Source: Candidatus Krumholzibacteriota bacterium
Lineage (GTDB): Bacteria; Krumholzibacteriota; Krumholzibacteriia; Krumholzibacteriales; Krumholzibacteriaceae
Direction: 5' to 3'
DNA length: 64,000 bases
Assembly (NCBI GenBank): GCA_041309605.1
Contig: JBFYZH010000115.1
Location: forward strand, 5,824-69,823
The notes beneath the pieces are model-generated. The model was not told where the DNA came from. It worked only from the letters and a program-made list of their open reading frames with translations, and made no database searches. The position numbers and the translations under genes were made by a program. The first letter of the stretch is position 1; each line of letters begins with the position of its first letter. This document shows, in pieces, positions 14,350 through 29,886 of the stretch.

Positions 14350-14440
14350 GGAAAGTCCATGAATGGATCCGGAAGGTCGGCGAACCGATCCGGGAAAGTC
14401 CATGAATGGATCCGGAGCTTCCGGAAAGACCCATGATTAT
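14350..14440. repeat. About 2.5 tandem copies of a ~36-bp unit (tccgggaaagtccatgaatggatccgga...) upstream of the propeller lipoprotein gene
   Basis: Unit at about 14350-14377 repeats at about 14386-14413. A degenerate third copy follows ('tccggaaagacccatgattatcc'). Confidence 0.4.
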
Positions 14441-14465
14441 CCAAGCGGGAAAGGAGCTCATTTCA

Positions 14466-16264
14466 TGAAGACGTCCTTCAACCGGGCTGCGGCGCTTCTT
14501 CTGCCGGCCGCGATGCTCGTCTTCGGCGCCACGGGCGGCTGTGATAATTCAGAGACGATCTGCGAGCCATGCGTCCGGCAGGAGCTGGCGTGGGAATCGC
14601 AGAAACCCGCGCCGTTCGGATCGATGAACTTCAGGGGCACGTTCGGAGTCGGCGGGCACATTTACATGTACGGCGATCTGGGAAGGATCGCGCATTTCGA
14701 CGGCACGGATTGGGAACTGATGCAGACGCCCACATCTTACAATCTGATAAACATGTGGGGTTCGTCCCCCGGCGATCTCTACGCGGTGAACGGCAATTAT
14801 CAGATGGTGCACTTTAACGGCACGTCATGGACGAGCCTGATTCTGCCGGCCCAGATGTACGCATATCCCAGGGCGGTGTGGGGATTGTCGGCGAGCGATG
14901 TATGGGTGCTGGGATATGGTTTCAGCGCGTACCATTACGATGGGACCGGCTGGAGCGACGAACTGCTCCCCGGTACGTACAATATGAACGAAATCTGGGG
15001 CAGTTCGGGTTCCAACGTCTACGCCGTGGGGTACAACGGCGATATCCTGCACTACAACGGTTCGTACTGGTCGGAGATCAATCACGGCCTTACCACCAAT
15101 CAACTCTACGGCATCTGGGGAAGCGGTTCGAACGATATCTGGGCGTTCGGGGACAACGGCACGCTGCTTCACTACAACGGTTCGATCTGGAGCGACCTTT
15201 CAGGCGATCCGCCGATGGGAGCGAATTTTATCTACGACGCTCAGGGCAACGCCGCCGACGACATATATTTCTGCGCGGGGAACCTGATCTACCACTACGA
15301 CGGATCGGATATTTCTCTCTTCGCGGACTGGCAGGATCTCTTCAACGGCGGGGAGGGGATCTGGGTCGAAGGCGACATTATCTATCAGTCAGGTTACTAT
15401 GGATGCATTTCGTTCTACGACGGATCGGAATGGTCGTTTGTCCAGGATGATTGCGACATTTCACTCAACGACATCTGGACCGACGGCCCGTCGAACGCGT
15501 GGGCCGTGGGCGGGATGAACACCGTTTATCGGTATGACGGAGTCGACTGGACGAAACAGCCGGCGCTCGCGATCCCCGGCGGCGATCTGAACTCGATAGA
15601 CGGCGAGGGCGGAGTGATTTACGCGTGCGGAGAGGGAGGGTCGATCGTCCGCCACAACGGAAGCGGATGGACCGATATCAGCGACGAGTCCGTCACGCAA
15701 CAGGACCTGACGGGCTGTTTTGTCACCGGGACGGAGGCCTTTTTCGTCGGGTATCAGGGCACGATCCTGCATTTCGACGGAACCACGCTCGCTGCGATGT
15801 CAAGCGGGACGACCGAATATTTCACGGCTGTATGGGGTTCGGGCGCCGACGACGTGTACGCCGCCGGACGGGACGGATCGATCCTGCATTACAACGGGAC
15901 CGCGTGGAGCGAGGTGTTCGCCAGTTCGGAAATCAGGTTCATCGATATATGGGGCTCTCCGGCAGGCCACGTCTACGCGTGCGGATCCCAGGGGGCCGTG
16001 GCTCATTGGGACGGCTCGACATGGACGATCGACAATGCGGATACCAGGGAGGAACTCCAGGGTATCTGGGGAAGCTCCGATACGGATATCTACGCCTCGG
16101 GGGGTTGGTCCATTTCTCATTTCGACGGCGAAAGGTGGACCGATCTCAACCTTTACCTGACCATCCCGGCCGGGAACATGCGTGCGATACATGGGAGCGC
16201 CGCCGACAACATCTTCGTCGCAGGCGCTTACGGTAACATCCTTCACTACGGACCGGAACGATAA
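14466..16264 (+). CDS. Secreted/lipoprotein with about 14 beta-propeller blade repeats (Ycf48/BNR-like 'GxxGxILHYNGSxWS' motif)
   Basis: Signal peptide 'MKTSFNRAAALLLPAAMLVFGATGGC'. Recurrent '..G.ILHYNGS.WS..' and 'IWG.S..D.YA.G' motifs. Confidence 0.6.
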
Positions 16265-16502: not shown

Positions 16503-17630
16503 ATGGAAAAAAAGAAGATCATCGTCATAACGAACGACATGGAGATCGGAGGCGTGCAGCGGATGCTCGTCGGCCTGCTGAAAGCCCTCGATCGCAAGCG
16601 GTTCGAACCGTACGTGGCGCTGGTCTGCGCCGGCGGCCCGCTGGCCGGCGAGCTTGAGAGCCTCGGCGTCGAGGTCGCGCGGTTCGACTGCATCAGGCGG
16701 ACGAGACTCGGCAAATGGATCGACCCGGTCATGGTGCTTCGCCTTGCCTTCTGGATGAGGAAGAAGCGGTTCGACGTCTGCCACACGCATCTTTTTCTCG
16801 GCAATCTCGTCGGCCGCGTCGCCGCGCTTCTCGCGCGCTGCCCGGTGATCATATCGACCGAGCACAACACCTACATAAACAAGGGGGCGGTGGCGAGGGG
16901 GATAGACCGCCTTCTCGCTCGTTCGACATGCACGATCGTCGCCGTATCCGCGGCGGTGGCCGATTTTACCAGCGCTCAGGAGTCGATCCCGAGGGGAAGG
17001 TTCACCGTGATACATAACGGAATCGACACATCCTTCTTCGATGTAATTCCAATGGACGGGCGGGCGCTGAGGGAAAGAATCGGCATTCCTCGAGATCATT
17101 TCGTCGTCGGGAGCGTCGGTCGCCTGGTGGAGCAGAAGGGGTACCCGCTTGTTCTCGAAATATTCCGGGATTTTCTGAGCGGTCACCCGCAGAGTTTCCT
17201 TGTCATCGTCGGGGACGGCGACCGGCGCGGGGATCTGGAGAAAAAGGCCGCCGATCTGAAAATCCAGGACAAGGTCTTCTTCGCGGGGTATCAGTTGGAT
17301 ATCCGGCCATGGTTGTCCATTTTCGATATCTATCTCACAACCCCTTTTCACGAAGGACTTGCCATGGTCTTTCCGGAGGCGATGGTGTCCGGTGTGCCCG
17401 TTGTCACAACGAGGTTCCCCGGCATATGCGAGGTGATCGAGGACGGGGTCACCGGCATATTGATAGACGGAAGGGCCCCCGGGCCCTACGCGGCGGCGCT
17501 TTCGTCGCTGCTGGGCGACCGGCGGAGAATGGCGGAGCTGGCCTCGCGCGCGAAAAGGCGCGCGCTCGAACGATTCACGATCGGGCGAATGGCCGGCGAA
17601 TATGAAGCACTCTACGACGGGAGGTTTTAA
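16503..17630 (+). CDS. Glycosyltransferase family 4 (GT-B)
   Basis: N-terminal 'IIVITNDMEIGGVQRML' and C-terminal 'EGLAMVFPEAMVSGVPVVTTRFPGICEVIEDGVTGILID' are typical GT4 features. Confidence 0.85.
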   Translation: MEKKKIIVITNDMEIGGVQRMLVGLLKALDRKRFEPYVALVCAGGPLAGELESLGVEVARFDCIRRTRLGKWIDPVMVLRLAFWMRKKRFDVCHTHLFLGNLVGRVAALLARCPVIISTEHNTYINKGAVARGIDRLLARSTCTIVAVSAAVADFTSAQESIPRGRFTVIHNGIDTSFFDVIPMDGRALRERIGIPRDHFVVGSVGRLVEQKGYPLVLEIFRDFLSGHPQSFLVIVGDGDRRGDLEKKAADLKIQDKVFFAGYQLDIRPWLSIFDIYLTTPFHEGLAMVFPEAMVSGVPVVTTRFPGICEVIEDGVTGILIDGRAPGPYAAALSSLLGDRRRMAELASRAKRRALERFTIGRMAGEYEALYDGRF

Positions 17631-17632
17631 AG

Positions 17633-17992
17633 ATGATTGTCAGAAGCATTATCCTGCTGCTGTCCGGCCTGATAATAGGGACGGCGGCCTCGTTCGCCGG
17701 CGTTGGCGGGGGATTTATCATCGTGCCGCTTCTGATGTTCCTCGGCTTTACGGCGCAGAACGCGGTGGGGACCTCCTTTCTCGCGATTCTCGTCATCTCC
17801 GTCACGGCCCTCATCGCGCACAACAAGCTGGCCAACGTCGATTACCGGACGGGCCTTCTAATCGGCGCGGGAGGCATGCTGGGCGTCCCGATCGGAGCCC
17901 GCCTGCTCGAGCATGTCTCGGACGCGAGCTTCAGGCGGATATTCGCCTTAGTGCTGATCGGAATTGCGGTCTACCTCTTTTTTAAAAAGTGA
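17633..17992 (+). CDS. TauE/SafE (TSUP) family membrane protein, half-size single-repeat form (119 aa)
   Basis: 'GVGGGFIIVPLLMFLGF....AVGTSFLAILVIS' motif. Four predicted TM helices. Confidence 0.55.
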   Translation: MIVRSIILLLSGLIIGTAASFAGVGGGFIIVPLLMFLGFTAQNAVGTSFLAILVISVTALIAHNKLANVDYRTGLLIGAGGMLGVPIGARLLEHVSDASFRRIFALVLIGIAVYLFFKK

Positions 17993-18053
17993 CCGGAGTT
18001 GCCCCGGCGACCGGAGCGGGCTCCGGCCGTTTTAACGACAGGGTACGGTGTGA

Positions 18054-18900
18054 AATGCCTTTCTTCCTGTTTGTATCGGACCTGCATGGAAAGACTCCCA
18101 GGTTCGAGAAACTGTTCGGCGCGATGGACGAGGGGAGGCCGGACGCCGTCTTCATCGGCGGGGACATTCTCCCGCATTTCCTGCACTCCGAGGCGGAGGA
18201 TTTCATCGAGGGATATTTCCTCAAACAGCTCGAGGCGCTCAGAGGCCGGATGAAGGAGTCTTATCCGCCGGTATTCGTCATCCTCGGAAACGACGACGGG
18301 AGGCTCGACGAGGAAATTCTTGTCGAGGCGGACGGGAAGGGGTTGATCAATTACGCCCACGACAGGAAAAAAGCCGTCGGGCGATGGACCGTTTACGGAT
18401 ATTCGTATGTCCCGCCGACGCCGTTCAGCCTGAAGGACTGGGAGAGGTACGACGTGTCGCGGTACGTCGATCCGGGGTGCATCTCGCCCGAGGAGGGTTC
18501 GCGTACGATCCCGGTCAGCGAGGACGAGGCCAGGTACTCGACGATACAGGACGATCTCGCGAAGCTCGCGCAGTCGGACGACATGGAGAACGCCATTTTC
18601 CTTTTCCACGCGCCGCCGTACAAAACCAATCTCGACAGGGCGGCCCTCGACGGAAGGACGGTCGACCACGTCCCGCTGGACGTGCATGTCGGCAGCATCG
18701 CCATCCGGCGCTTCATAGAATCGCGCCAGCCCCTCGTTACGCTGCACGGCCACATACACGAATCGCCGAGGATCACCCGCTCGTGGCGGGACCGTATCGG
18801 CCGCACGCACCTCTTTTCGGCGGCTCATGACGGGTCGCAGCTCGCCGTCATCAGCTTCGATCCGGAGGACCCGGGATCGGCTGAGCGCGCGCTTCTGTAA
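18054..18900 (+). CDS. Calcineurin-like metallophosphoesterase
   Basis: 'FLFVSDLHGK', 'VFIGGDILPH', 'VILGNDDG' and 'TLHGHIHE' motifs. Confidence 0.7.
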
Positions 18901-19003: not shown

Positions 19004-22000
19004 TCAGGGCTTGCCGGGGCTGCCGGGATTGCCGGGGCCGCCAGGGCCGCCAGGATTGCCGAAGCTGCCGGGGTTGCCGAGCGGGAGCGATCTCGCCGCA
19101 TCGGTGATCGCGCCTATCTTGACGGCGAAGCTCGTCCTGTTGGAGATGTCCTCGTCGGTCACGAAGTGCACGTCGAGAAGCCCTCCGGTGCGGTACCCCG
19201 TGCGAAGGTAGTTCAATTCGTCGAGGCAGAGGCTCCATCCCTCGAGCCAGTGCATGAGGTCGTCGCGCTGTTTCTTCTTTCCGCGGAAGTGTATGAGGAT
19301 GTCGATGTCGCTCGCGAGACCCGCCGTCGCGTTCTTGGTGCTGCCGAAGACGTAGAAGCCCTGGACGCCGAACCGCTGCGGATCGATCCGCGATGCGATG
19401 TGTTCGGCCATGCGGAGCCTCCATACCCACGACTGGTCGGCGGGATCCTCGTGGTCGAGCGGTTTGTCTGAAACCGGCTCCGAGGCCGAACCCGGTTCGG
19501 CCAGCACCCCGACCGCCTCGCCGATGTCGGCGTTCATAAGAACGCGCAGGACCAGGCCGCCGGTCACCTCCGGCACGTCGATCAACCTCACGGTGTCGGC
19601 GAGATGCTCGTACTCCAGCAGGACTTCGGCGAGGATGTTCTTGGAATTCCGGAGGAAATCCTCGTTGAAAACGATCCCGTCGTCGTCGGGGTAGAGTGGG
19701 AGGTAGCGTATGTGTCCCTCGACGAGGTCCTGGAAGAAATGTGTGCCGAAGGAAAGGTCGGGCAGGTAGTTACCCTTCTTTCTTGCGATCTCTATCAGCA
19801 CGGCCGTGTTGTTGATGTCCGAGTACGTGATGCTCACGCCGAGCTTGATGTCGCCGCGGCTTCCCCAGCGTCCAGGTCCCATGAGGATGAACTGCCTCTT
19901 GGGAAGCAGCTTGTTGAGCTTGCCGACCGCGCGGCCTACGGCGACGAGATCGTCCCTGTCGGAAAGTTCGCTGTATTTTTCGGGATCGATATAGACTACG
20001 TGCGTTATCTCCGGGACGCGCCCGTTCGACACGTACCGGTTCGCCGAGAAGATCTTCCTTTCCGGAGGCGTGTTCTGCGGGATGGGCGTGGCTACACTGT
20101 CTTCCGAATAGCTCTGCGGCCTGCACTGGAGAAGGTAGAGGTCCTTGCCGTCGTGCGCGAATTCTATATCGACGGGCGTGGAGAGTTTTTCCTCGAGGAG
20201 CTTGAGCATGCCGTCGATTTTTTTAACGAAGGGGGTGTCGGTCACGAGTCCCTCGAAGGTCGTATAGACCTCCGTCTCCGCGAAATCCAGCCTCATCGCG
20301 AACGCCTTGTGAAGGTGCCCGTTTTCGTAGACGGAGACGATCTTCTCTATCATCGGTATTTCGGCCCCGGTTTCCCTGAAAAAATCGCGCAGGACGACCG
20401 TCTCGAATGAATTCGTCTTCAGATTGATCACGTCGGCCATCCTCGGCGAATAGTAGATCGATTCCTCGGGGGTGACGTTTACGCGAAGGCTCGGATTGCC
20501 TGGCGCGAGAAGGATCGGGAAGTCGTCGCCGAGGCGGTCCACCGCCCTTGTGCCGAGGCCCGGCACCATCCTTATGAGCCCGTCCTCGCGCCTGATCCGC
20601 GGCGACCAGAGGAACTCGTTCCTGCTGAAGGCGACCCCCGAAAAAGCGGGCAGATAATAATCCCCGATGCGCCTTCCAACGACCTCCTGGATCATTATGC
20701 CCATTTCCTCGCTGAAGTCGAGAAGCCCTCGCTCGGACCTGTACTCGATCGGGTCGGGCCCGAAGGTCGAGGCGTAGACCTCCGCTATCGCGTCCATCAG
20801 GGCCTCGAGCCGTTTCTGCTTGCTCCCCTGGTTGGCGAGGAAGAGACTCTTGTACTTTCCCGAGAAAGCCGCCCCGAGGCTGTCCTCGAGAAGGCTCGAG
20901 CTTCGTATGATGAGCGGCGTGTATCCGAATTCGTCGAGCATCATCGACAGGCCCTGGACGATTTCTGGCGGGAAGCGGCCGTTCTTGAAGGTCCGTATCA
21001 CGTTCGGATACTCGAGCCGGATCTGGTTGATGTCCTTGTATTTCTGCTCGATGATCTCGTCGAGGTTGTTGTACCCGAGAAATACGAGGAGAAGGTCGCT
21101 CGTGAGGTGCCAGCTTCTCGGTATCTTTATCTGTTTGAGCAGATCGCCGGCTTCGTCCGATTTTTTTATGATATTGTATGCGAGGTGCAGTCCGGCGCAT
21201 TTGCCCCCGAGCCTTCCGTGGCTGTCCGAGCAGTAGACGATCCTGTCGATGACGTCGGAATAATCGCTTATCCCGATATATTTTTTCGCGATGTTGATGT
21301 GTTCGAGCTGCCCCGAATAGAACCGCCTGATCAGCGCGACTTCGACGCCGCTTTTTGTCGCCCCGGTGAGCTCGATCCCCTCGGGGGCGATGGCGCGGTA
21401 ATCCCTCAGGGTCGAGATCACGCCGGCCAGCGTCGTGTTGCGGTTTGTCAGCTGCATGAGGAACTTGAGCTTGTCCTCCTGTATCCATTTCTGAAGGTAG
21501 GCCATGATCTGGTTGTCGGTGAACTGCGTCGAGGCTATGTCGAATATCTCCGCGCTCAACTCATCGGTTATCCTGAGGGCCTTCCTCTTCTTCGGCTTGT
21601 TCGTCTCCGCGGGATTCTCGGCGTCCAGGTCGTTCGAGGCGCTGTTGCCGTCGCGCAGCCTGTCCGCCTTCTCGACGCCGGTCCAGCAGAGATGATTGAG
21701 CATTCTCTCGGAGATGTTGTTGAACAGGTTGCGGTCGGTGTTGCCCACCAGGTTCAGTATCGCGCGCCATTCCCTCTCGCCGTCGTCGGTCTTGAGCGCG
21801 CCCTTCTTCTCCGCGGCCCCCTTGAGCATCTGGTGTAGCATGAAACTGCCCAGCCTGGCGGCTATCGTCTGGAGCAGCCTCATTTCCTGCTTGAGGAAGG
21901 GGCATTCCTCCTTCTCCGGCGTGGTCTTGACGTAAAAAACGTGGATCTCGCCGGCCTTTTTCTCGTTTACGAGGATGTCGGCGCGCTGCATGCACTCGGT

Positions 22001-22231
22001 CTCCCTGAAGTCGGGGGGCTGGAAGACGCCGGTGCCCACCAATACCCTCGCGCGGCAGTCGTCCGGGTGCTGCCATCCCGACGGGATCGCCTCGGCGATA
22101 TCCATGCAGACCTGGTCGAGCTCGGCGTCATGCTTCTTCAGTATTTCCTCGACGCGGTAAAGGCACTCGAGTTCCTTCTCCCTTTCGCGGAAGAAGTGGA
22201 GCATGTCGTCGTTGTACTGTTCCTTATTCAT
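19004..22231 (-). CDS. Large multidomain protein (1075 aa). Domains in order: unknown N-domain, PEP-synthase/PPDK-type ATP-binding domain (PPDK_N), conserved middle domain shared with the neighbouring paralogue, C-terminal Pol-beta-type nucleotidyltransferase domain, Gly-Pro collagen-like tail.
   Basis: 'GGKCAGL', 'IRSSSLLEDSLGAAFSGKYKS' and 'VDIEFAHDGKDLYLLQCRPQ' are hallmarks of PF01326-type domains. Middle domain 'ILMGPGRWGS...SFGTHFF'. NTase motif 'FYVFGSTKNATAGLASDIDILIHF'. Tail 'GNPGSFGNPGGPGGPGNPGSPGKP'. Confidence 0.75.
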   Translation of the reverse strand: MNKEQYNDDMLHFFREREKELECLYRVEEILKKHDAELDQVCMDIAEAIPSGWQHPDDCRARVLVGTGVFQPPDFRETECMQRADILVNEKKAGEIHVFYVKTTPEKEECPFLKQEMRLLQTIAARLGSFMLHQMLKGAAEKKGALKTDDGEREWRAILNLVGNTDRNLFNNISERMLNHLCWTGVEKADRLRDGNSASNDLDAENPAETNKPKKRKALRITDELSAEIFDIASTQFTDNQIMAYLQKWIQEDKLKFLMQLTNRNTTLAGVISTLRDYRAIAPEGIELTGATKSGVEVALIRRFYSGQLEHINIAKKYIGISDYSDVIDRIVYCSDSHGRLGGKCAGLHLAYNIIKKSDEAGDLLKQIKIPRSWHLTSDLLLVFLGYNNLDEIIEQKYKDINQIRLEYPNVIRTFKNGRFPPEIVQGLSMMLDEFGYTPLIIRSSSLLEDSLGAAFSGKYKSLFLANQGSKQKRLEALMDAIAEVYASTFGPDPIEYRSERGLLDFSEEMGIMIQEVVGRRIGDYYLPAFSGVAFSRNEFLWSPRIRREDGLIRMVPGLGTRAVDRLGDDFPILLAPGNPSLRVNVTPEESIYYSPRMADVINLKTNSFETVVLRDFFRETGAEIPMIEKIVSVYENGHLHKAFAMRLDFAETEVYTTFEGLVTDTPFVKKIDGMLKLLEEKLSTPVDIEFAHDGKDLYLLQCRPQSYSEDSVATPIPQNTPPERKIFSANRYVSNGRVPEITHVVYIDPEKYSELSDRDDLVAVGRAVGKLNKLLPKRQFILMGPGRWGSRGDIKLGVSITYSDINNTAVLIEIARKKGNYLPDLSFGTHFFQDLVEGHIRYLPLYPDDDGIVFNEDFLRNSKNILAEVLLEYEHLADTVRLIDVPEVTGGLVLRVLMNADIGEAVGVLAEPGSASEPVSDKPLDHEDPADQSWVWRLRMAEHIASRIDPQRFGVQGFYVFGSTKNATAGLASDIDILIHFRGKKKQRDDLMHWLEGWSLCLDELNYLRTGYRTGGLLDVHFVTDEDISNRTSFAVKIGAITDAARSLPLGNPGSFGNPGGPGGPGNPGSPGKP

Positions 22232-23981
22232 GGAGTATCACCCCCCGGCCGCTTCGGCCGTCCACCCTGATTTCGAGAGGCCGGTCGAGCCTCACATGCC
22301 TGACGTGTTCGGTCGTCGCGGCGGGCGGCTGCGAGTCGAGCCACTTCCAGTCTATCAGATATTCTCCGTCATGTTGAACGGAGAAATAGAATATCCTGAA
22401 ACTCGTGACGTTGTGGAAAAAGTGCGATCCCTGGCTGAGGTTGAAATTCATGTCGGGAAGGGACGCTTCTACGATCACCTTCGCGCCGGAAATCTGGCTG
22501 AAATCGACCGGTATCCCGCCGGACGGGTCGGTCGTTCCCCAGCGCCCGAATCCTATCAGGATATAGGGCTTTTTAGCGCCGGTCAGTTCGCGGTTGAATC
22601 GCTCGATCTCCTTTGCGATCGCGCCGGTGCCGGCCGCGTCGAAACGTTCCGGATCGACGTAAAGTATGTCGGTAATGTCGCCCAGGGTGCCGTTGCCGAG
22701 GACCGTCTTCGAGGCGAGAACGGCCCGGGCGCTGGAAAGCTCCTCTTCGGGCACTTCGACCTTCGCGTCGGAAACGACCATCGGCCTTACCTGCAGAAAC
22801 CCGAAATGCGCCGGCGAGCAGTACTCCCGCTCGAGGGTCATGGCGAATTCGATCTCCACCATCGTCCCGATAGTGTCCTCGCAAAGCTTCAATACCGTCC
22901 TCAGGACCTCGGTGAGCGGTATGACGCCGGCCTTGAGGATCGGGGAGAAATCGAGGACACGAGGTCCCGCGGCCTCGATTCCCATCTCGATCCTCTCGTC
23001 GTACGGAAGGTATGTCGAGGCTATATGGCGCAGGGTCCCGTCGTATTCGCCGTCCTCGATACCGCACCTTACGAGGTACTCGGTCTCGAGTATCGGATTG
23101 TAGACCGGAGGCGCGCCCATGTTGACGGCCCAGAATCCGGTCTGCGAATTCTTGAGCATGTCGCCGATCGATTTGAACGGCGGGTTCGCCTGGGGCCAGG
23201 CCGGCGAGAAGGCCCACGACACCCCTTCGTCGACGATGGTCCGGCCGAGGCCGAGGGCCAGTTCGACGATCCCCTCGCCCGGCCGGGCGTTGCCGGTCGG
23301 ATAGAAATTGTACGAGCGCATGACCCCCGATATATGGGGGTAGAAACGGGTGTCGAACCTCGTCCCGACTATCTCCTGGACGATCACCGCCATCTTTTCG
23401 TCGATCGTCGCGTGGTGCGTCGCCTTCATGTAATTGCCCGCGGATTTGAAGAAAGTGGAGGCGTAGACGAACTTGATCGCCTCGGAGAGTTTCCTGAAAC
23501 GCGAATCGGCGTCGGGCTGGTTGTTGGAGACCATCTTCGTCGCGTAGACGCTGGCGAACGGTTCGAACATCGCGTCTTCCAGAAGGCTCGAGGAGCGTAT
23601 CGCCAGCGGCGAATGGACCTGCTCGACGAGGGAGCGCAGGTCTCCGACGAGGCGCACGGGGAGGGTCGCCTTCTGGAAGGCGTGCGCTATGAGGTCGTCG
23701 CGGTCTCCCGAGTAGGCGATATCGAAGAGATTGTTCTCCTTCATGAAAAGGTCGAAGAACTCGGTGGTAATCACGCTCAGGGTGGGGATCGTTATCGAAA
23801 TGTCGGGTTCGTACGATCTGCACGGCTTCGACTCGAGGATGGTCTTCATCCTTGCCAGGCCGTGCGCCTTGCCGCCGAGCTCGCCCGAACCCATGTAGGT
23901 GAAACGGTGGCTGCCGTCGAAAAAATGCCGGTCAAACCGGGTAAGGGAGGCGTGATGGGGGCTGTATTCTTTCCCGGGCAT
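22224..23981 (-). CDS. PPDK_N (PEP synthase ATP-binding)-domain protein (585 aa) plus the same middle domain. Paralogue of the adjacent gene; overlaps it by 8 bp.
   Basis: 'ELGGKAHGL', 'IRSSSLLEDAMFEPFASVYATKMV' and 'VEIEFAMT...GFLQVRPM'. Middle domain 'ILIGFGRWGTTDPSGG...SQGSHFFHN' is alignable to the 1075-aa protein. Confidence 0.75.
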   Translation of the reverse strand: MPGKEYSPHHASLTRFDRHFFDGSHRFTYMGSGELGGKAHGLARMKTILESKPCRSYEPDISITIPTLSVITTEFFDLFMKENNLFDIAYSGDRDDLIAHAFQKATLPVRLVGDLRSLVEQVHSPLAIRSSSLLEDAMFEPFASVYATKMVSNNQPDADSRFRKLSEAIKFVYASTFFKSAGNYMKATHHATIDEKMAVIVQEIVGTRFDTRFYPHISGVMRSYNFYPTGNARPGEGIVELALGLGRTIVDEGVSWAFSPAWPQANPPFKSIGDMLKNSQTGFWAVNMGAPPVYNPILETEYLVRCGIEDGEYDGTLRHIASTYLPYDERIEMGIEAAGPRVLDFSPILKAGVIPLTEVLRTVLKLCEDTIGTMVEIEFAMTLEREYCSPAHFGFLQVRPMVVSDAKVEVPEEELSSARAVLASKTVLGNGTLGDITDILYVDPERFDAAGTGAIAKEIERFNRELTGAKKPYILIGFGRWGTTDPSGGIPVDFSQISGAKVIVEASLPDMNFNLSQGSHFFHNVTSFRIFYFSVQHDGEYLIDWKWLDSQPPAATTEHVRHVRLDRPLEIRVDGRSGRGVILHE

Positions 23982-24121
23982 CGCAGGCGGCCTCGCTCCG
24001 AAAGGGTTGTCCGGCCGGTCATTGTCCCGTCGCGCGCGGCGTTTCTGTTTCGGCCGGATGCGAACCGTCCCGGCCGGTGCTGCCGGCCGGGACAGGCAAA
24101 TACCTTGAAAGGACGTCTCGT

Positions 24122-25408
24122 TTATACCCAGCCGCGGTCCTTGCAGGCCTGCGCCACGCGTCCGACCGCTATGACATAGGCCGCGTCGCGCATGTAGAGT
24201 TTCTTCTTCTTCGCAAGGTCGCTCACCGCGTTGAACGCCGAAGTCATCTTCGTGTCCAGTTTGCCGAGCACTTCGTCCTTTTCCCAGAAATAGTTCATGT
24301 TCGACTGAACCTGCTCGAAGTAGCTGCAGGTGACGCCGCCGGCGTTGGCCAGCAGGTCGGGGATCATGAAGATGCCGCGTTCGTGGATCGCCTTGTCCGC
24401 TTCGGGAGTGGTGGGGCCGTTGGCTCCCTCGGCTATTATCTTTACCGTCTTGCTTATCTTGTCCACGTTCTTGCCCGTGATCTGGTGTTCGAGAGCCGCC
24501 GGGATGAGTATGTCGACATCCTGTTCGATCCAGGCATCTCCGGGGAGCACCTCGTAACCGTGCTCCTTGGCGAGGGCCTTGTCGATCCCGCCGAAACGGT
24601 CGGTAATGCTCCTGAGGGTGGCAAGGTCGACTCCGTCCTCTTTATGGAATGAATAGGACGTCTGGTCCTTCTGGTCCCAGCTCGATACGCAGACGACCTT
24701 GCCCCAGATCTGGTTGTACAGATCGATCGCGTACTGGGCGACGTTGCCGAACCCCTGGACGCTCGCCTTCGTTTCGCTCGCGGGGATGTCGAGCTGTTTC
24801 AAAGCCTCGCGCACGGTGAAGATGACTCCGTACCCGGTCGCCTCTGTCCGGCCGAGCGATCCGCCCATGCCGACCGGCTTGCCGGTGATGAAGCCCGGAA
24901 GGCGCTGGCCGTGTATCGTTTCGAACTCGTCGAGCATCCAGAGCATGTGCTGGGCGCTCGTCATCACGTCGGGCGCGGGGACGTCCTTCAGGGGGCCCAT
25001 GTCTTTTGCGAGGTGGCGTATCCATCCGCGGCAGATCGCCTCCTGTTCGCGCATGCTCAGGTTGTGCGGATCGCAGATGATGCCGCCCTTGCCGCCCCCG
25101 AGCGGGATGTCCACGACGGAGCATTTCCAGGTCATCCACATCGCGAGCGCCCTTACCGTATCTATCGTTTCCATGGGATGGAAACGGATGCCGCCCTTGG
25201 CGGGGCCTCTCGCGTCGTTGTGCTGTACGCGGAATCCCCTGAAGACCTTTACGGTCCCGTCATCCATCCTCACGGGAATGCTTACGTGGTACTCTCTGAG
25301 GTTGTACCGTAACAATTCCTTCGTGCCCTGATCGAGATCGAGGATTTCCGCGACCTTGTCGAACTGGGCCTGGGCCATTTCGAAGGGATTGAACGATTTT
25401 TCTGCCAT
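24122..25408 (-). CDS. gdhA: Glutamate dehydrogenase (Glu/Leu/Phe/Val dehydrogenase family)
   Basis: 'GGKGGIICDP', 'GFGNVAQYA' and typical GDH length and order. Confidence 0.9.
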   Translation of the reverse strand: MAEKSFNPFEMAQAQFDKVAEILDLDQGTKELLRYNLREYHVSIPVRMDDGTVKVFRGFRVQHNDARGPAKGGIRFHPMETIDTVRALAMWMTWKCSVVDIPLGGGKGGIICDPHNLSMREQEAICRGWIRHLAKDMGPLKDVPAPDVMTSAQHMLWMLDEFETIHGQRLPGFITGKPVGMGGSLGRTEATGYGVIFTVREALKQLDIPASETKASVQGFGNVAQYAIDLYNQIWGKVVCVSSWDQKDQTSYSFHKEDGVDLATLRSITDRFGGIDKALAKEHGYEVLPGDAWIEQDVDILIPAALEHQITGKNVDKISKTVKIIAEGANGPTTPEADKAIHERGIFMIPDLLANAGGVTCSYFEQVQSNMNYFWEKDEVLGKLDTKMTSAFNAVSDLAKKKKLYMRDAAYVIAVGRVAQACKDRGWV

Positions 25409-25561: not shown

Positions 25562-25589
25562 GAGCGGAAGGCCGGACGGCCTTCCGCTC
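25562..25589 (-). terminator. Rho-independent terminator for the ECF/metal-stress operon
   Basis: Perfect 12-bp stem gagcggaaggcc/ggccttccgctc with a 4-nt loop. On the minus strand it is followed by a U-rich tract (plus-strand atatatacaaa at 25549-25561). Confidence 0.55.
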
Positions 25590-25638: not shown

Positions 25639-26367
25639 CTATTTCTTTTCTATGACCTTGATCTCCTGGCATTTCTTAAGGCATTCGTCCGTGCACTGGC
25701 TCTTGTCTGTATGGCCGCATCCCATCGTTTCGCACTGGACCTTTATGACCTTCATGTCGCATCCCATTTCTTTGCCGTCTCTGACGCCGCATCCGCCCGC
25801 GCCCATTCCTTCCCCGCGGCAGCCCGAGCCGCCCATGCGGGAGCGGCCGTCCTTGCCCATCGTGCAGCAATGGCCGCGCTCGCCCGACATGCTTCCGTGC
25901 CCCTCACGGCCCATCATGCAGCCGTGTCCGCCCATCTCACCCGTGCAACAGCCCCGGCCCATGCCGCATCCATGGTGGCTCATGAACGTCTTGAACTGAT
26001 CGGCTGAAAGGAGCTTGCGCACTTCAAGCAGGAAATCGTGGCGGTTGCTCATCAGCGCCGCCTGCACGTCGCGCATCTCGGCGGCGAGCTTGTCGATCGT
26101 CTTGCGGCCGGGATTGTCGGAAGTGAATTCCTTGAACAGCTGTTCGTGTATCCCGTCCCTCTTCTTTTCCAGATCGACGTTCCTGAGTTTGAGATCGATC
26201 CCGAGCTTTTCGATCTTCAGCGACGTTTCCTTGTCGAGTTTCTGCATAGATTCCTGGCAGCTCTTCTCGCATTCCTTCGCCTTCATCGGTTCGCCCTGCG
26301 CGAACAGGTAGACGGGAAGGACCGCCGCGATCATGATCGCGGTCAGGATAAACAGACCTTTTCTCAT
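25639..26367 (-). CDS. Periplasmic CpxP/Spy/ZraP-like (LTXXQ) protein with a long Cys/His/Met/Gly-rich metal-binding C-terminal tail
   Basis: Signal peptide 'MRKGLFILTAIMIAAVLPVYLFA'. 'LSADQFKTF' LTXXQ-like motif. Tail 'HHGCGMGRGCCTGEMGGHGCMMGREGHG...GHCCTMG...CETMGCGHTDKSQCTDEC'. Four-nt overlap with the upstream gene. Confidence 0.6.
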   Translation of the reverse strand: MRKGLFILTAIMIAAVLPVYLFAQGEPMKAKECEKSCQESMQKLDKETSLKIEKLGIDLKLRNVDLEKKRDGIHEQLFKEFTSDNPGRKTIDKLAAEMRDVQAALMSNRHDFLLEVRKLLSADQFKTFMSHHGCGMGRGCCTGEMGGHGCMMGREGHGSMSGERGHCCTMGKDGRSRMGGSGCRGEGMGAGGCGVRDGKEMGCDMKVIKVQCETMGCGHTDKSQCTDECLKKCQEIKVIEKK

Positions 26368-26897
26368 TTCGTTTCCTTTCCGAGCGAGTCGGCCCCGGAG
26401 CATTCTTTCTCCAGATACATGCACTTGCGGTCCGGACTGCACCCGATGAATAACATGAACCTTTCCCTCTCCGCCGGATCCAGGATCGAATGCGACCTAA
26501 GAAGCTTTCTCACGATCGACTTCTCGAGATCGCTCTGGAGGGTCGAAATGCCGTCCACCTTGTCCATGATCGCCTTGCTGTCGGGGCTGGCGGCATGAAA
26601 AAGGTCGAGCAGTTCGCTTCTCTCCCTGCCGATCCTTTCCCTGATCCCTTCCTCCGCGGAGCACGCTCTGAGCATCTCCCGCTCCACGAACTTCGTCTTG
26701 CTGTCGCAAAGACCGATTTCCGTCGCGAGGCGGTGACTTCTTTTCCTGCAGGATTCCTCGGGATCGCAGCGCCTGATCTCCATCCTGTCAGCGGCCTTCC
26801 CGTGCGCGCGCCAGTGAACGGCGACGGTCCCCAGAACCGCCGCGTTGAAGGACAGGGAGACGATGAGAGCGGCTTTCAGTTTCCAGCTAGACATCAT
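26364..26897 (-). CDS. Membrane-anchored periplasmic CpxP/heavy-metal-sensor-like protein
   Basis: N-terminal TM 'LKAALIVSLSFNAAVLGTVAV'. 'LDPAERERFMLF' LTXXQ-like motif. Confidence 0.5.
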   Translation of the reverse strand: MMSSWKLKAALIVSLSFNAAVLGTVAVHWRAHGKAADRMEIRRCDPEESCRKRSHRLATEIGLCDSKTKFVEREMLRACSAEEGIRERIGRERSELLDLFHAASPDSKAIMDKVDGISTLQSDLEKSIVRKLLRSHSILDPAERERFMLFIGCSPDRKCMYLEKECSGADSLGKETK

Positions 26898-27357: not shown

Positions 27358-27429
27358 AATTCCTCCTGCTATATGTGCAAACGGATCGTTTCTTAAAAAC
27401 TTGCTGAAAAAATCGCTCGCGCCATGAAT

Positions 27430-28005
27430 TTATTTGCCGCGCCGCCCTTCCGTCCTGAAATCCCCGAGCATCCTGCCGAGCCTTTCGCGTGCCCTGAAAA
27501 GGATCGATTCGACGGCCGGAACCGTAAGGCCGGTGCTTTCGGCGATCTGGGCGTAGGTCATTTCCGCCGTAACGCGCAGCTCCAGGACCGCCCGCCATGC
27601 GGCCGGAAGCTTTTCGAGCGCCCTGCCGTAACGCTCCTGGAGCTGGGCGGTTTCGGCGTTCTCGTCGGGAAGGGCCGTTCTGCTTCCGACCTGCAGGATT
27701 TCTTCATCCCCGGCGAGATCCTCGAAGCCGACGAAGTCGCCGCTTTTCTGTTTTCTCCTGTGGTCGATGAGCAGGTTTGCGGCGACCCTGTAAAGGTACG
27801 TCCTGAAGGTCGCGTTCTCGCGGATCTCGTAGGCGGCTCCGAGCAGTTTGATGAAAAGCTGCTGGGTGAGATCCTCGGAATCCTCGATCGAACAGCCGGA
27901 TCTCAGGAAAAAATTGTAGAAAGGCGTGCGGTACCGTTCTACGAGAATGCGGAAGGCGTGGGTGTCGCCCCTGCGGATCATTTTTATGAGAGTGCGGTCG
28001 TCCAA
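27430..28005 (-). CDS. ECF (sigma-70 family group IV) sigma factor
   Basis: Region 2 'FRILVERYRTPFYNFFLR....DSEDLTQQLFIKL' and region 4 'LPAAWRAVLELRVTAEMTYAQIAESTGLTVPAVESILFRARERL'. Confidence 0.8.
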   Translation of the reverse strand: MDDRTLIKMIRRGDTHAFRILVERYRTPFYNFFLRSGCSIEDSEDLTQQLFIKLLGAAYEIRENATFRTYLYRVAANLLIDHRRKQKSGDFVGFEDLAGDEEILQVGSRTALPDENAETAQLQERYGRALEKLPAAWRAVLELRVTAEMTYAQIAESTGLTVPAVESILFRARERLGRMLGDFRTEGRRGK

Positions 28006-28038
28006 TTCGGTATCCCCCGGCTCGATGATTTCGGAGGC

Positions 28039-29886
28039 TCAGAGGGCGCAGGAGGTGTCGGGAGGCGCGGTTCTGTACGTATTTCTTTTCTGCGCGGACA
28101 GGATCGTCTTTTTCAGCCTGATCGATTTCGGCGTTATTTCGACCATCTCGTCGTCACGGATAAAATCCAGGGCCCACTCGATCGTTATCGGTCTTACGGC
28201 CGTCAAAACGACCGCTTCGTCCTTTCCCGCGGCACGCATATTGGAGAGTTTCTTCTCCCTCGCCTGGTTCACGTTGAGGTCGCCGTCGCGGTTGTGCTCG
28301 CCGATGATCATTCCTTCGTAGGCGGGATCTCCGGGCCGCACGAAGATCTGCCCGCGCGGTTCCAGGTTGAACAGGGCGTACGCCACGGCATTGCCCGGCC
28401 TGTCGGCGACAAGGGAGCCGGTGAACCTGGACTGGAAATCCCCCCTGTACTCCTCGTAATCCTCGAGGTAAGAGTTCATGATTCCCGTCCCCTTCGTGTC
28501 GGTGAGAAAATCGTTGCGGTAACCGATCAGCGACCGTGAAGGGATGGAAAATTCGATCCTCACGCGCCCGCTTCCGTTGTTGACGAGATTTGTCATTTTT
28601 CCTTTTCGCTGGGACAGCTTTTCCGCGACAACCCCGAGAAAACCCTCGTCGCAGTCTATGAAGAGCCGCTCGATCGGTTCGAGTTTGCGGCCGTTCCTGT
28701 ATTTGTAAATGACATGGGGGCGGCCGACGCAGAACTCGAATCCTTCGCGCCGCATCGTCTCTATCAATATGGCGAGCTGAAATTCGCCGCGGCCCTTGAC
28801 TATCATGCTGTCCCTGTCCTCGGACTCCTCGACCTGTATGGCCACGTTCATAAGCGTTTCCTTGTACAGGCGCTCGCGTATTTTCGCCGACTGCACGAAT
28901 TTTCCCTCCAGGCCGCTGAAGGGGGAATCGTTGATCGTGAATCTCATCGAGATGGTCGGTTCGTCCACGGTGATCCGCTTGAGGGGCTTTGGAGATTCCT
29001 TCGTGCAGATCGTATCGCCGATCTTCACGTCGTCGATCCCCGAAAGAACGACGATATCGCCCGGCTCGATCGAAAGGGCCGGCTTGAAGGTCATCCCTTC
29101 GTATTTCTGGAGTTTTGTGACCTTCAGCGGGATCTGTTGGTTGTCCGAATTGATGCACACCAGGTTCTTGTTCGAGCTCACCGTCCCGTTGACGATCTTT
29201 CCGATCGCGAGCCTGCCGAGGTAGTCCGAATATCCGAGATCGGATACGAGCATCTGGAACGGTTCCCTGGGGTCGTGAACCGGTGGGGGGACCTCATGGA
29301 GTATCGTGTCGAAGAGGATGTGAAGGTCGCCCGTTTTATCCGATATCTTTTTCTTCGCGACGCCGTCGCGGCCGATCGCGTACATGTATGGGAAATCGAC
29401 CTGGCCTTCGCTCGCGCCGAGGTCTATGAAGAGATCGTAAATGGCGTCGAGAACGACATCGGGCTGAGCGTCCTTGCGGTCGATCTTGTTGATCACCACG
29501 ATGACCTTAAGACCCGATTCGAGAGCCTTCTTTAGCACGAAACGGGTCTGGGGCAGCGGGCCTTCGCAGGCGTCAACGAGGAGCAGCGCGCCGTCCACCA
29601 TCGAAAGCGCCCTTTCCACCTCGCCGCCGAAATCGGAGTGCCCGGGCGTGTCGACGATGTTGATCTTTACGCCCTTCCACGAGACGGAGCAGTTCTTCGC
29701 GGCGATCGTGATCCCTCTTTCGCGCTCCAGGTCCATCGTGTCCATCAGCCGTTCGTTGACCGCCTGTCCCTCGCGGAACATCCCGCTTTGCTTGAACATC
29801 GCGTCCACGAGCGTGGTCTTGCCATGATCGACATGGGCGATTATGGCGATATTCCTGATCCCCGTATTTTTAACAAGCCGTTTCAT
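28039..29886 (-). CDS. typA: Translational GTPase TypA/BipA
   Basis: 'IRNIAIIAHVDHGKTTLVD', 'DTPGHSDF' and full-length colinear BipA architecture. Confidence 0.9.
   Translation of the reverse strand: MKRLVKNTGIRNIAIIAHVDHGKTTLVDAMFKQSGMFREGQAVNERLMDTMDLERERGITIAAKNCSVSWKGVKINIVDTPGHSDFGGEVERALSMVDGALLLVDACEGPLPQTRFVLKKALESGLKVIVVINKIDRKDAQPDVVLDAIYDLFIDLGASEGQVDFPYMYAIGRDGVAKKKISDKTGDLHILFDTILHEVPPPVHDPREPFQMLVSDLGYSDYLGRLAIGKIVNGTVSSNKNLVCINSDNQQIPLKVTKLQKYEGMTFKPALSIEPGDIVVLSGIDDVKIGDTICTKESPKPLKRITVDEPTISMRFTINDSPFSGLEGKFVQSAKIRERLYKETLMNVAIQVEESEDRDSMIVKGRGEFQLAILIETMRREGFEFCVGRPHVIYKYRNGRKLEPIERLFIDCDEGFLGVVAEKLSQRKGKMTNLVNNGSGRVRIEFSIPSRSLIGYRNDFLTDTKGTGIMNSYLEDYEEYRGDFQSRFTGSLVADRPGNAVAYALFNLEPRGQIFVRPGDPAYEGMIIGEHNRDGDLNVNQAREKKLSNMRAAGKDEAVVLTAVRPITIEWALDFIRDDEMVEITPKSIRLKKTILSAQKRNTYRTAPPDTSCAL

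Follow-up and report, generated by a model that had tools for sequence, protein, structure and literature searches.

What is the role of two overlapping genes whose products each carry the ATP-grasp domain of phosphoenolpyruvate (PEP) synthase without its canonical phospho-histidine domain? The question is raised by a 64,000-nucleotide stretch of DNA, hereafter the window, from Candidatus Krumholzibacteriota bacterium (GenBank assembly GCA_041309605.1, contig JBFYZH010000115.1, positions 5,824 to 69,823 of the forward strand), in which the pair, designated A and B, is encoded on the minus strand (Table 1). Across many phyla the conserved partner of these genes is the gene for glutamate dehydrogenase (GDH), an enzyme at which carbon and nitrogen metabolism meet. 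In bacteria, glutamine synthetase is governed by a textbook covalent-modification cascade that involves GlnE and GlnD; we know of no dedicated post-translational regulator of the bacterial hexameric GDH. The reading favoured here, with a probability of about 0.45 on the evidence of sequence comparison, is that A and B constitute a sensor-controlled, ATP-driven post-translational regulator of the GDH encoded with them.

Both genes are minus-strand open reading frames (ORFs) that share 8 base pairs (bp), as a sequence-only reading of the window had described them. The tandem paralogy proposed in that reading is borne out by BLASTP: B339-854 aligns with A33-543 at 27% identity (E 8e-41), an alignment that runs past the PPDK_N ATP-grasp through the downstream region and lies far beyond chance. 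Homologues of A, 585 amino acids (aa) long and about 60-72% identical, occur across phyla. Those of B number thousands, measure ~1057 aa and are 52-92% identical over 97-98% of the query length; a scan of one genome per species located carriers of the B-type module in at least 547 GTDB species representatives from many phyla. The census of the B family comprised 83 loci, 74 of them informative for an upstream GDH, from Krumholzibacteriota, Zixibacteria, Ignavibacteria, Calditrichota, Planctomycetota, Acidobacteriota, Bacteroidota, Eisenbacteria, Cloacimonadota, Spirochaetes and others. The co-occurrence in other genomes that had been put forward as a check is indeed found: A lies immediately 5' of B in 61 of the 83 loci, two of which have the genes fused. 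Fusion proteins made of an A part followed by a B part are also present in the protein database (P0083, 1633 aa; P0110, 1634 aa). Among the 59 separate pairs, the overlap measures 8 bp in 20 and 4 bp in another 20, 40 of 59 together. A and B are one unit, translationally coupled and sometimes fused. In the remaining 22 loci B is not directly preceded by A; most of these have GDH directly in front of B.

A conserved third partner, for which the same reading had recommended a search, exists in the form of GDH. Its gene is the immediate upstream neighbour, in the same orientation, in 68 of the 74 informative loci; it is divergent and adjacent in three and elsewhere in the flank in one. A query with the window-type enzyme detected no GDH in the other two; one of these (L071) has an Escherichia coli-type GDH (~450 aa) downstream of B, which brings the loci with a GDH nearby to 73 of 74 and leaves a single locus (L048) without one within 6 kb. 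The E. coli type is also present downstream of B in L045, whose upstream flank was too short to score, and eight further loci (L010, L015, L039, L044, L054, L068, L073 and L075) harbour both types. The two GDH families linked to the module are only about 30% identical. The presence of two types, of 428 aa and ~450 aa, around the PPDK_N module suggests coordinated control of anabolic and catabolic GDH isoenzymes. No further pathway genes conserved around B were found in the compared loci.

The association extends to a second branch of the superfamily. Members of this branch, family 2, are ~990 aa long and consist of two receiver-like domains, a weak DUF5752-like stretch, a PPDK_N domain and the same histidine-containing domain that follows PPDK_N in A and B; they have no nucleotidyltransferase (NTase). 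GDH is the most frequent neighbour of family 2 and is present in the flank of 43 of 80 metagenome loci, mostly directly upstream, where fewer than one in 80 would be expected by chance according to our own estimate from one to two GDH genes per genome of 3-5 Mb. Several gene orders are elaborate: GDH, family-2 gene, an overlapping 771-aa PPDK_N paralogue and a second GDH (L090); family-2 gene, GDH and a 933-aa PPDK_N+NTase protein (L095); or GDH, a family-2 gene and a phosphoesterase in one orientation, with an A-like/B-like pair converging on them (L114). In L094 and L099 the order is GDH, family-2 gene and PAS histidine kinase, with a second GDH further on. The kinase (5542-6984 in L094, 5145-6608 in L099) is a soluble PAS-PAS-HisKA_3-HATPase protein that directly follows the family-2 gene, and is likely to be a cognate kinase that provides two-component input to the GDH-linked module. 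The GDH link is thus a property of the PPDK_N+His module and not of the single B architecture.

Receiver hits in family 2 are weak in Pfam scans, and PF00072 is precomputed for nearly all listed Bacteroides members; the family-2 consensus (A5) contains VEDS, ISD, S and K-x-SP, which we would interpret as the phospho-acceptor hallmarks of a receiver. A shares 46% identity with the C-terminal 569 aa of one receiver-containing family-2 protein and 39% with the family-2 protein of Bacteroides fragilis, and B is only 26-28% identical to the family-2 catalytic part. As A is closer to family 2 than B is, A represents a receiver-less family-2 module and B a divergent partner with sensor and NTase. Family 2 occurs throughout the gut Bacteroides, with B. 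fragilis, B. finegoldii, B. salyersiae, B. intestinalis and B. ovatus among its carriers. In B. fragilis CP103381.1 (L169) the family-2 gene is divergent from GDH, and in Jilunia laotingensis (L151) it is convergent with an NADP-dependent GDH. The GDH match at 8191-9565 of L169 falls in two frames (9565-9164 and 9201-8191), which represents an assembly frameshift or a pseudogene. Cluster look-ups for a B. thetaiotaomicron copy returned other Bacteroides species only, and BT1971 of that organism is a catalase.

Table 1. Features of the GDH-A-B locus and its surroundings in the window
Feature	Position	Strand	Details
Gene A	22224..23981	(-)	585 aa; PPDK_N ATP-grasp and His domain; without sensor, without NTase
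Gene B	19004..22231	(-)	1075 aa; GAF (predicted), helical region, PPDK_N, His domain, minimal NTase
Overlap of A stop codon and B start codon	22224..22231	(-)	8 bp; translational coupling
A PPDK_N (PEP-synthase-type ATP-grasp)	22743..23882	(-)	residues 34-413; Pfam PF01326 E 7.3e-32
A His domain	22227..22742	(-)	residues 414-585; GFGRWG 477-482; His520 at nt 22422-22424; aligns with B718-912
B GAF-fold sensor domain (predicted)	21806..22231	(-)	residues 1-142
B all-helical region	21236..21772	(-)	residues 154-332; AlphaFold2 secondary structure, pLDDT about 65-88
B PPDK_N ATP-grasp	20081..21214	(-)	residues 340-717; Pfam PF01326 E 2.9e-56
B His domain	19496..20080	(-)	residues 718-912; GPGRWGS 785-791, D794, E814, SFGTH831FFQDLVE; His831 at nt 19739-19741
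B minimal Pol-beta-type NTase	19082..19447	(-)	residues ~929-1050; G963-S964, D975-I-D977, D1020
B C-terminal tail, Gly/Pro/Asn-rich, low complexity	19007..19078	(-)	GNPGSFGNPGGPGGPGNPGSPGKP; specific to this genome
GDH, hexameric ELFV type, first operon gene	24122..25408	(-)	428 aa; Pfam ELFV_dehydrog E 4e-71 and ELFV_dehydrog_N
Hairpin after GDH stop, perfect, GC-rich	24067..24093	(-)	11 bp centroid, 13 bp minimum-energy; no U-tract
Strong intrinsic-terminator-like hairpin	25562..25589	(-)	12-bp stem, 9 GC pairs, then T-run
Metallophosphoesterase, calcineurin-like	17989..18900	(+)	303-aa ORF; Pfam Metallophos E 3e-10; convergent with B

The GDH of the window aligns end to end with ordinary hexameric GDHs; its matches include the Thermococcus profundus enzyme 1euz (PDB sequence match, E 2e-125) and the NCBIfam model GdhA_Arch (E 2e-142). 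The strong hairpin upstream ends the preceding gene and marks the upstream boundary of the GDH-A-B unit, and no convincing terminator was found between GDH, A and B. The hairpin just after the GDH stop was considered as a terminator between GDH and A and rejected, as it has no U-tract and the overall fold z-score of the region around it is not significant. It is a possible attenuator or RNA-stability element between the two genes, and could lower the expression of A and B relative to GDH.

The ATP-grasp domains of both proteins appear to be intact. As the sequence-only reading had anticipated, Pfam assigns PPDK_N to A and B alike and, in B, NTP_transf_2 above its gathering score. The PPDK_N motifs listed in that reading are present, save that A reads FAS where F[AS]G had been given. 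A keeps GGK, RSSSLLED and EIEFA...LQVRP, and the corresponding residues of B are invariant in 24 homologues (GGK344, R443-SSSLLED450, D688-x-E690, Q702-x-R704). Sequence similarity to characterised dikinases ends there: the NCBIfam models for PEP synthase (PEPS), pyruvate, phosphate dikinase (PPDK), rifampin phosphotransferase (RPH) and PigC-RedH cover only part of the ATP-grasp and score 33-54 bits against cut-offs of 598-1300. PEP synthase models reach 53.5 bits (cut-off 598), RIF_Ptrans_rph 33.7 (999) and PigC 41.5 (1300), over matched stretches of 130-195 residues. The canonical phospho-His domain had been noted as missing, and neither PEP-utilizers (PF00391) nor PEP-utilizers_C has a Pfam match in A or B.

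The position of this domain is taken by one that follows PPDK_N in both proteins and is referred to here as the His domain. A shared module with an invariant histidine had been recognized in the sequence-only reading, which put it at ~120 aa; the module is real and its size is about 170-195 aa. The histidine (His831 of B, His520 of A) is invariant across 40 A and B homologues, and among the 150 best profile hits in the wider superfamily it is 99% conserved, with an Arg and a Glu at 100%. GPGRWGS (785-791), D794, E814 and SFGTH831FFQDLVE are invariant in the 24 B homologues; in A the invariant set is G, R, W, G, D, E, S, G, H, F, F, Y, and common to both families are G, N, GxGRWG, D, G, E, SxGxHFF, Y and G. 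A profile of the domain retrieved 2277 clusters (50% identity) among 1.84 billion representatives, and the domain follows PPDK_N in all 10 other architectures inspected (nine scanned with Pfam here, one precomputed).

The domain has no evident relatives. Pfam returned nothing at E 10 and NCBIfam nothing, and phmmer and profile searches against PDB sequences gave noise only. A scan of 2.06 Mb of DNA from the compared loci for a TSH-type motif, from which a comparison profile of PEP-utilizers domains could be built, found none. A model of B705-915 is confident, with a predicted local distance difference test (pLDDT) score of 88 and a predicted template modelling score (pTM) of 0.88, and depicts an alpha/beta domain in which a strand and a loop lead to a helix with His831 at its N-terminus. 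The same local setting is known for the TSH histidine of PPDK. The Foldseek comparison proposed for this middle domain gave no PDB match at E<0.001; structural matches included the extra C-terminal domain of pyruvate kinase, chaperonin apical domains, LD-carboxypeptidase and cyclases. By these comparisons the His domain appears to be new at the sequence level. Judging from the model, it is a plausible, if undemonstrated, and highly diverged counterpart of the phospho-His swivel domain.

B has domains at either end that A does not possess. The C-terminal minimal NTase claimed in the sequence-only reading is confirmed, with the spacing amended from GS-x9-DIDI to GS-x10-DID: residues 952-990 match NTP_transf_2 at E 7.4e-6 (26.7 bits, gathering score 21), the region has weaker Polbeta and MTPAP-like matches and a weak GLD-2 match, and the GS, the DxD and the third Asp are invariant across 24 B homologues. 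MntA_antitoxin scores 17.1 bits against an NCBIfam cut-off of 60, no GlnE or GlnD model is among the NCBIfam or Pfam matches at E<0.1, and PADLOC gave no match for A and, for B, weak matches to PDC-S09 models over the 40-residue NTase core only. Taken together, the comparisons place the B NTase in the minimal Pol-beta class, apart from MntA, GlnE and GlnD.

The N-terminal part of B, previously described as a ~270-aa domain of unknown nature, measures ~335 aa and consists of a GAF fold and a helical region. Pfam found no match in it, the helical region included. An AlphaFold2 model of B1-340 (mean pLDDT 75.5) has a helix/helix/four-strand/helix core; pLDDT is mostly 84-92 at residues 21-130 and lower at the N-terminal end and at ~101-110. 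Among its structural matches are the GAF domains of PtsP (Enzyme I-Ntr) and of NifA, and the model thus identifies the N-terminal domain as a predicted GAF fold, with E16, R17, K19, E20, C23, Y25, P50, G52, Q54, P56 and C59 as invariants. The two cysteines, Cys23 and Cys59 (window ~22163-22165 and ~22055-22057), are invariant in all B homologues examined and may form a redox-sensitive or ligand-binding site.

A metallophosphoesterase is a frequent fourth partner of GDH-A-B. It is the gene immediately 3' of B in 34 of the 50 loci with A, against 2 of the 18 that have no A (Fisher p 5e-5). In L045, L056, L062 and L076 it is read in the same direction as B; in L114 it comes straight after the family-2 gene, in the same orientation. 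The enzyme encoded in the window has a weak match to a phosphodiesterase model.

The sensor domains, GAF in B and receiver in family 2, point to a regulatory system that acts on or with GDH. In the mechanism that can be envisaged, the GAF or receiver domain would gate the enzyme according to nitrogen or carbon status; the GAF of B might bind a metabolite that reports this status, as the GAF domains of PtsP and NifA do. The ATP-grasp would charge the invariant histidine of the next domain with a phosphoryl (or pyrophosphoryl) group taken from ATP; this next domain would stand in for the swivelling phospho-His domain of PEP synthase, and the group would then be passed to GDH or to the partner subunit. 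The NTase of B, located where PEP synthase has its pyruvate-binding barrel, might add AMP or UMP to GDH or the partner, and the metallophosphoesterase would remove the modification. Where two GDH isoenzymes flank the module, they could be set reciprocally, preventing a futile NADPH/NADH cycle. A precedent for such modification of the target is provided by mammalian GDH, which is inactivated by SelO AMPylation (PMC12375108). Any particular chemistry of GDH control, as suggested by gene order and domains, must be held far less probable than 0.45. A broader proposal is that the whole PPDK_N+His superfamily is a widespread post-translational GDH switch, in essence a sensor-gated His-phosphorelay dikinase that would switch GDH on or off by covalent modification, to which B adds an NTase and which the phosphoesterase resets; this is advanced tentatively, at odds somewhat short of even.

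Several observations weigh against a regulator of GDH. It is gene order alone that designates GDH as the target, and that order would be just as compatible with a purely metabolic connection, by way of glutamate, 2-oxoglutarate, ammonium or NAD(P)H. About a quarter of the B loci lack A, about half of the family-2 loci have no GDH within 6 kb, and GDH need not be the sole partner. A regulator co-transcribed with an abundant target, at potentially similar levels, is unusual. In the Bacteroides gene orders compared, moreover, the family-2 gene is upstream of and divergent from gdh (L169, L139), a downstream position being seen only in Jilunia (L151). This arrangement bears on older work. A 1996 paper by Baggio and Morrison on Bacteroides reportedly deals, to go by its title, with trans-acting genes near gdhA that affect GDH activity, and a 3-kb downstream fragment is said to have restored GdhA activity in E. 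coli; a report of 1987 is likewise said to have described reversible in vivo inactivation of B. fragilis GDH. The family-2 gene is at most a candidate for the trans-acting gene of 1996, because these Bacteroides gene orders put it upstream of and divergent from gdh. A literature search for 'reversible inactivation' of Bacteroides GDH returned nothing, and the searchable literature contained nothing that links PPDK_N proteins or DUF5752 to GDH or that describes the present architecture.

Other functions have to be weighed against regulation of GDH. The pair might be a two-subunit metabolic dikinase/NTase that activates a small molecule derived from glutamate or 2-oxoglutarate, with the GAF domain in charge of allosteric tuning only; in this it would resemble phenylphosphate synthase, rifampin phosphotransferase or PigC and the way they treat their substrates. 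It is general knowledge that characterised PPDK_N enzymes, those acting on glucans aside, phosphorylate small molecules; the partial NCBIfam matches are to PEPS, RPH and PigC/RedH, minimal NTases include small-molecule nucleotidyltransferases, and tight operon linkage to a metabolic enzyme is typical of pathways. This explanation is nonetheless unlikely: Pfam reveals no recognisable acceptor-binding domain, neither a TIM barrel nor a RIF-binding insert, no further pathway genes are conserved nearby, and the module is linked to two ~30%-identical GDH families, sometimes both at one locus. Its fusion to receiver-like domains and its position beside a histidine kinase in family 2 would also be unusual for a pathway enzyme. 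Allosteric control of GDH by a nucleotide second messenger, with the NTase, or the ATP-grasp/His module in the role of pyrophosphoryl donor, as synthase and the phosphoesterase as the phosphodiesterase that clears the signal, is a distinctly improbable solution. A sensor combined with a nucleotide enzyme and a phosphodiesterase is a standard layout and GDHs elsewhere are under allosteric nucleotide control, both as a matter of general knowledge, the catalytic residues of the NTase are invariant, and the phosphoesterase weakly matches a phosphodiesterase model; but family 2 keeps the GDH link without an NTase, which weakens the idea, and many loci have no phosphoesterase. The NTase, moreover, belongs to the minimal MNT type and not to the cGAS/CD-NTase or GGDEF type, and no effector-binding domain is evident on the window GDH.

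The sequence-only reading had itself mentioned as a possibility a nucleotide- or polymer-modifying system, a dikinase with nucleotidylylation, for which a nucleic acid or polysaccharide would be the substrate. Pfam found no carbohydrate- or nucleic-acid-binding domain in A or B, genes for polymer synthesis are not among the conserved neighbours, nor is the glycosyltransferase at 16503-17630, and the sole conserved partner is GDH; with neither a domain nor a neighbour in its favour, this function is very improbable, even though glucan water dikinases phosphorylate a polymer by means of PPDK_N (general knowledge), RNA 3' ends are frequent substrates of Pol-beta NTases and the NTase has weak MTPAP-like and GLD-2 matches. 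Scarcely any credence is left for an ordinary PPDK or PEP synthase, or for a toxin-antitoxin or defence module marked by the NTase. The former agrees with the database names 'pyruvate, phosphate dikinase' and 'phosphoenolpyruvate synthase', but there is no PEP-utilizers and no PEP/pyruvate-binding domain, and the scores are 10-20 times under the cut-offs. The latter would account for the weak similarity of the NTase to MntA and to PADLOC PDC-S09 models; against it stand the lack of a HEPN partner, a stable cross-phylum synteny with a housekeeping gene and a PADLOC match restricted to the 40-residue NTase core.

How do A and B compare with known systems? PEPS, PPDK and RPH have a homologous ATP-grasp with the key motifs, and PEPS and PPDK share with B the order of ATP-grasp, small alpha/beta domain with a seemingly essential histidine at a helix N-terminus, and third domain, and the predicted fold class of the middle domain may be compatible. 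However, the middle domain of A and B has no sequence relation to PF00391 and bears its own GxGRWG/E/SxGxHFF signature, and the third domain, a TIM barrel in PEPS and PPDK, is a Pol-beta NTase in B and absent in A. Further differences are the N-terminal sensor domains, the paired paralogues and the partner, GDH as opposed to gluconeogenesis or resistance genes. A and B are not members of PEPS, PPDK or RPH because two of the three defining domains are absent. The claim of an architecture outside the characterised families (PEPS, RPH, PigC) holds in the light of the NCBIfam scores, 33-54 bits against 598-1300: no full-length colinear hit to a characterised dikinase was obtained, and both the DxD of the NTase and the gene pair are conserved.

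Phenylphosphate synthase and acetovanillone phosphotransferase are, as is generally known, also PEP-synthase-like with separate subunits encoded side by side, and they split the ATP part and a canonical His part between these subunits and phosphorylate phenols; the latter enzyme, AcvAB, is the subject of a preprint (10.1101/2022.04.28.489975). A and B, unlike phenylphosphate synthase, each carry both the ATP and a non-canonical His part, plus the added sensor and NTase. The closest functional analogy to the proposed role would be GlnE and GlnD, Pol-beta-fold NTases known to nucleotidylylate nitrogen-assimilation proteins reversibly in response to 2-oxoglutarate/glutamine status. Their homology to B is confined to the NTase core; they have no ATP-grasp/His module, and they target glutamine synthetase and PII where GDH is the presumed target of B. 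PtsP uses PEP through a TIM barrel and a canonical PF00391 domain to phosphorylate NPr, whereas B uses PPDK_N and has no HPr-like partner. MntA, to which B has a weak match, is a minimal NTase too, and such NTases can AMPylate proteins (general knowledge); it is a stand-alone protein paired with a HEPN toxin, whereas the NTase of B is the C-terminal domain of a 1075-aa protein beside GDH and a phosphoesterase. SelO, with its pseudokinase fold, has no relation to A and B; what it shares with the proposal is GDH as its target of inhibitory AMPylation in mammals. From comparative genomics and models, A and B would therefore lie outside the known kinds of system.

The association with GDH is strong, replicated in two architectures and very widespread, and it reaches tractable gut bacteria: the sister form, family 2, is present in dominant human-gut Bacteroides and in thousands of metagenomic copies. 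If the proposed regulation is correct, the GDH route of ammonium assimilation would have a counterpart of GlnE/GlnD. It would entail a new signalling chemistry, in which a PEP-synthase-type dikinase serves regulation, it would define a new protein domain, and thousands of 'PEP synthase' and 'PPDK' annotations would be corrected. It would also explain the trans-acting gene reported near gdhA in Bacteroides and the reportedly reversible in vivo inactivation of GDH, and the old question of ammonia-dependent inactivation of the Bacteroides enzyme could be put to a direct test in an organism amenable to genetics. Should the target prove to be a metabolite, the family of enzymes would still be new, and so would its product.

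Some minor features complete the picture of the locus. The C-terminal tail of B is missing from the homologues, which end at ~1057 aa, and may be a lineage-specific extension or a read-through of an ancestral stop codon. A 658-aa ORF lies antisense to A (22203-24179, plus strand) and antisense ORFs of 243-421 aa lie over B; all were set aside as probable artefacts of high GC content, given the thousands of full-length homologues of the minus-strand genes. Two slightly overlapping minus-strand ORFs just upstream of the GDH operon (25639-26442 and 26364-26897) both match Metal_resist (Spy/CpxP/ZraP-like periplasmic stress) and are followed by the terminator at 25562-25589. Other genes of the window include a GT4 glycosyltransferase (16503-17630) and BipA/TypA (28039-29886), and two plus-strand ORFs (14363-16264, 633 aa; 27424-28539, 371 aa) have no Pfam match at E<0.001; none of these four is conserved beside the module elsewhere.

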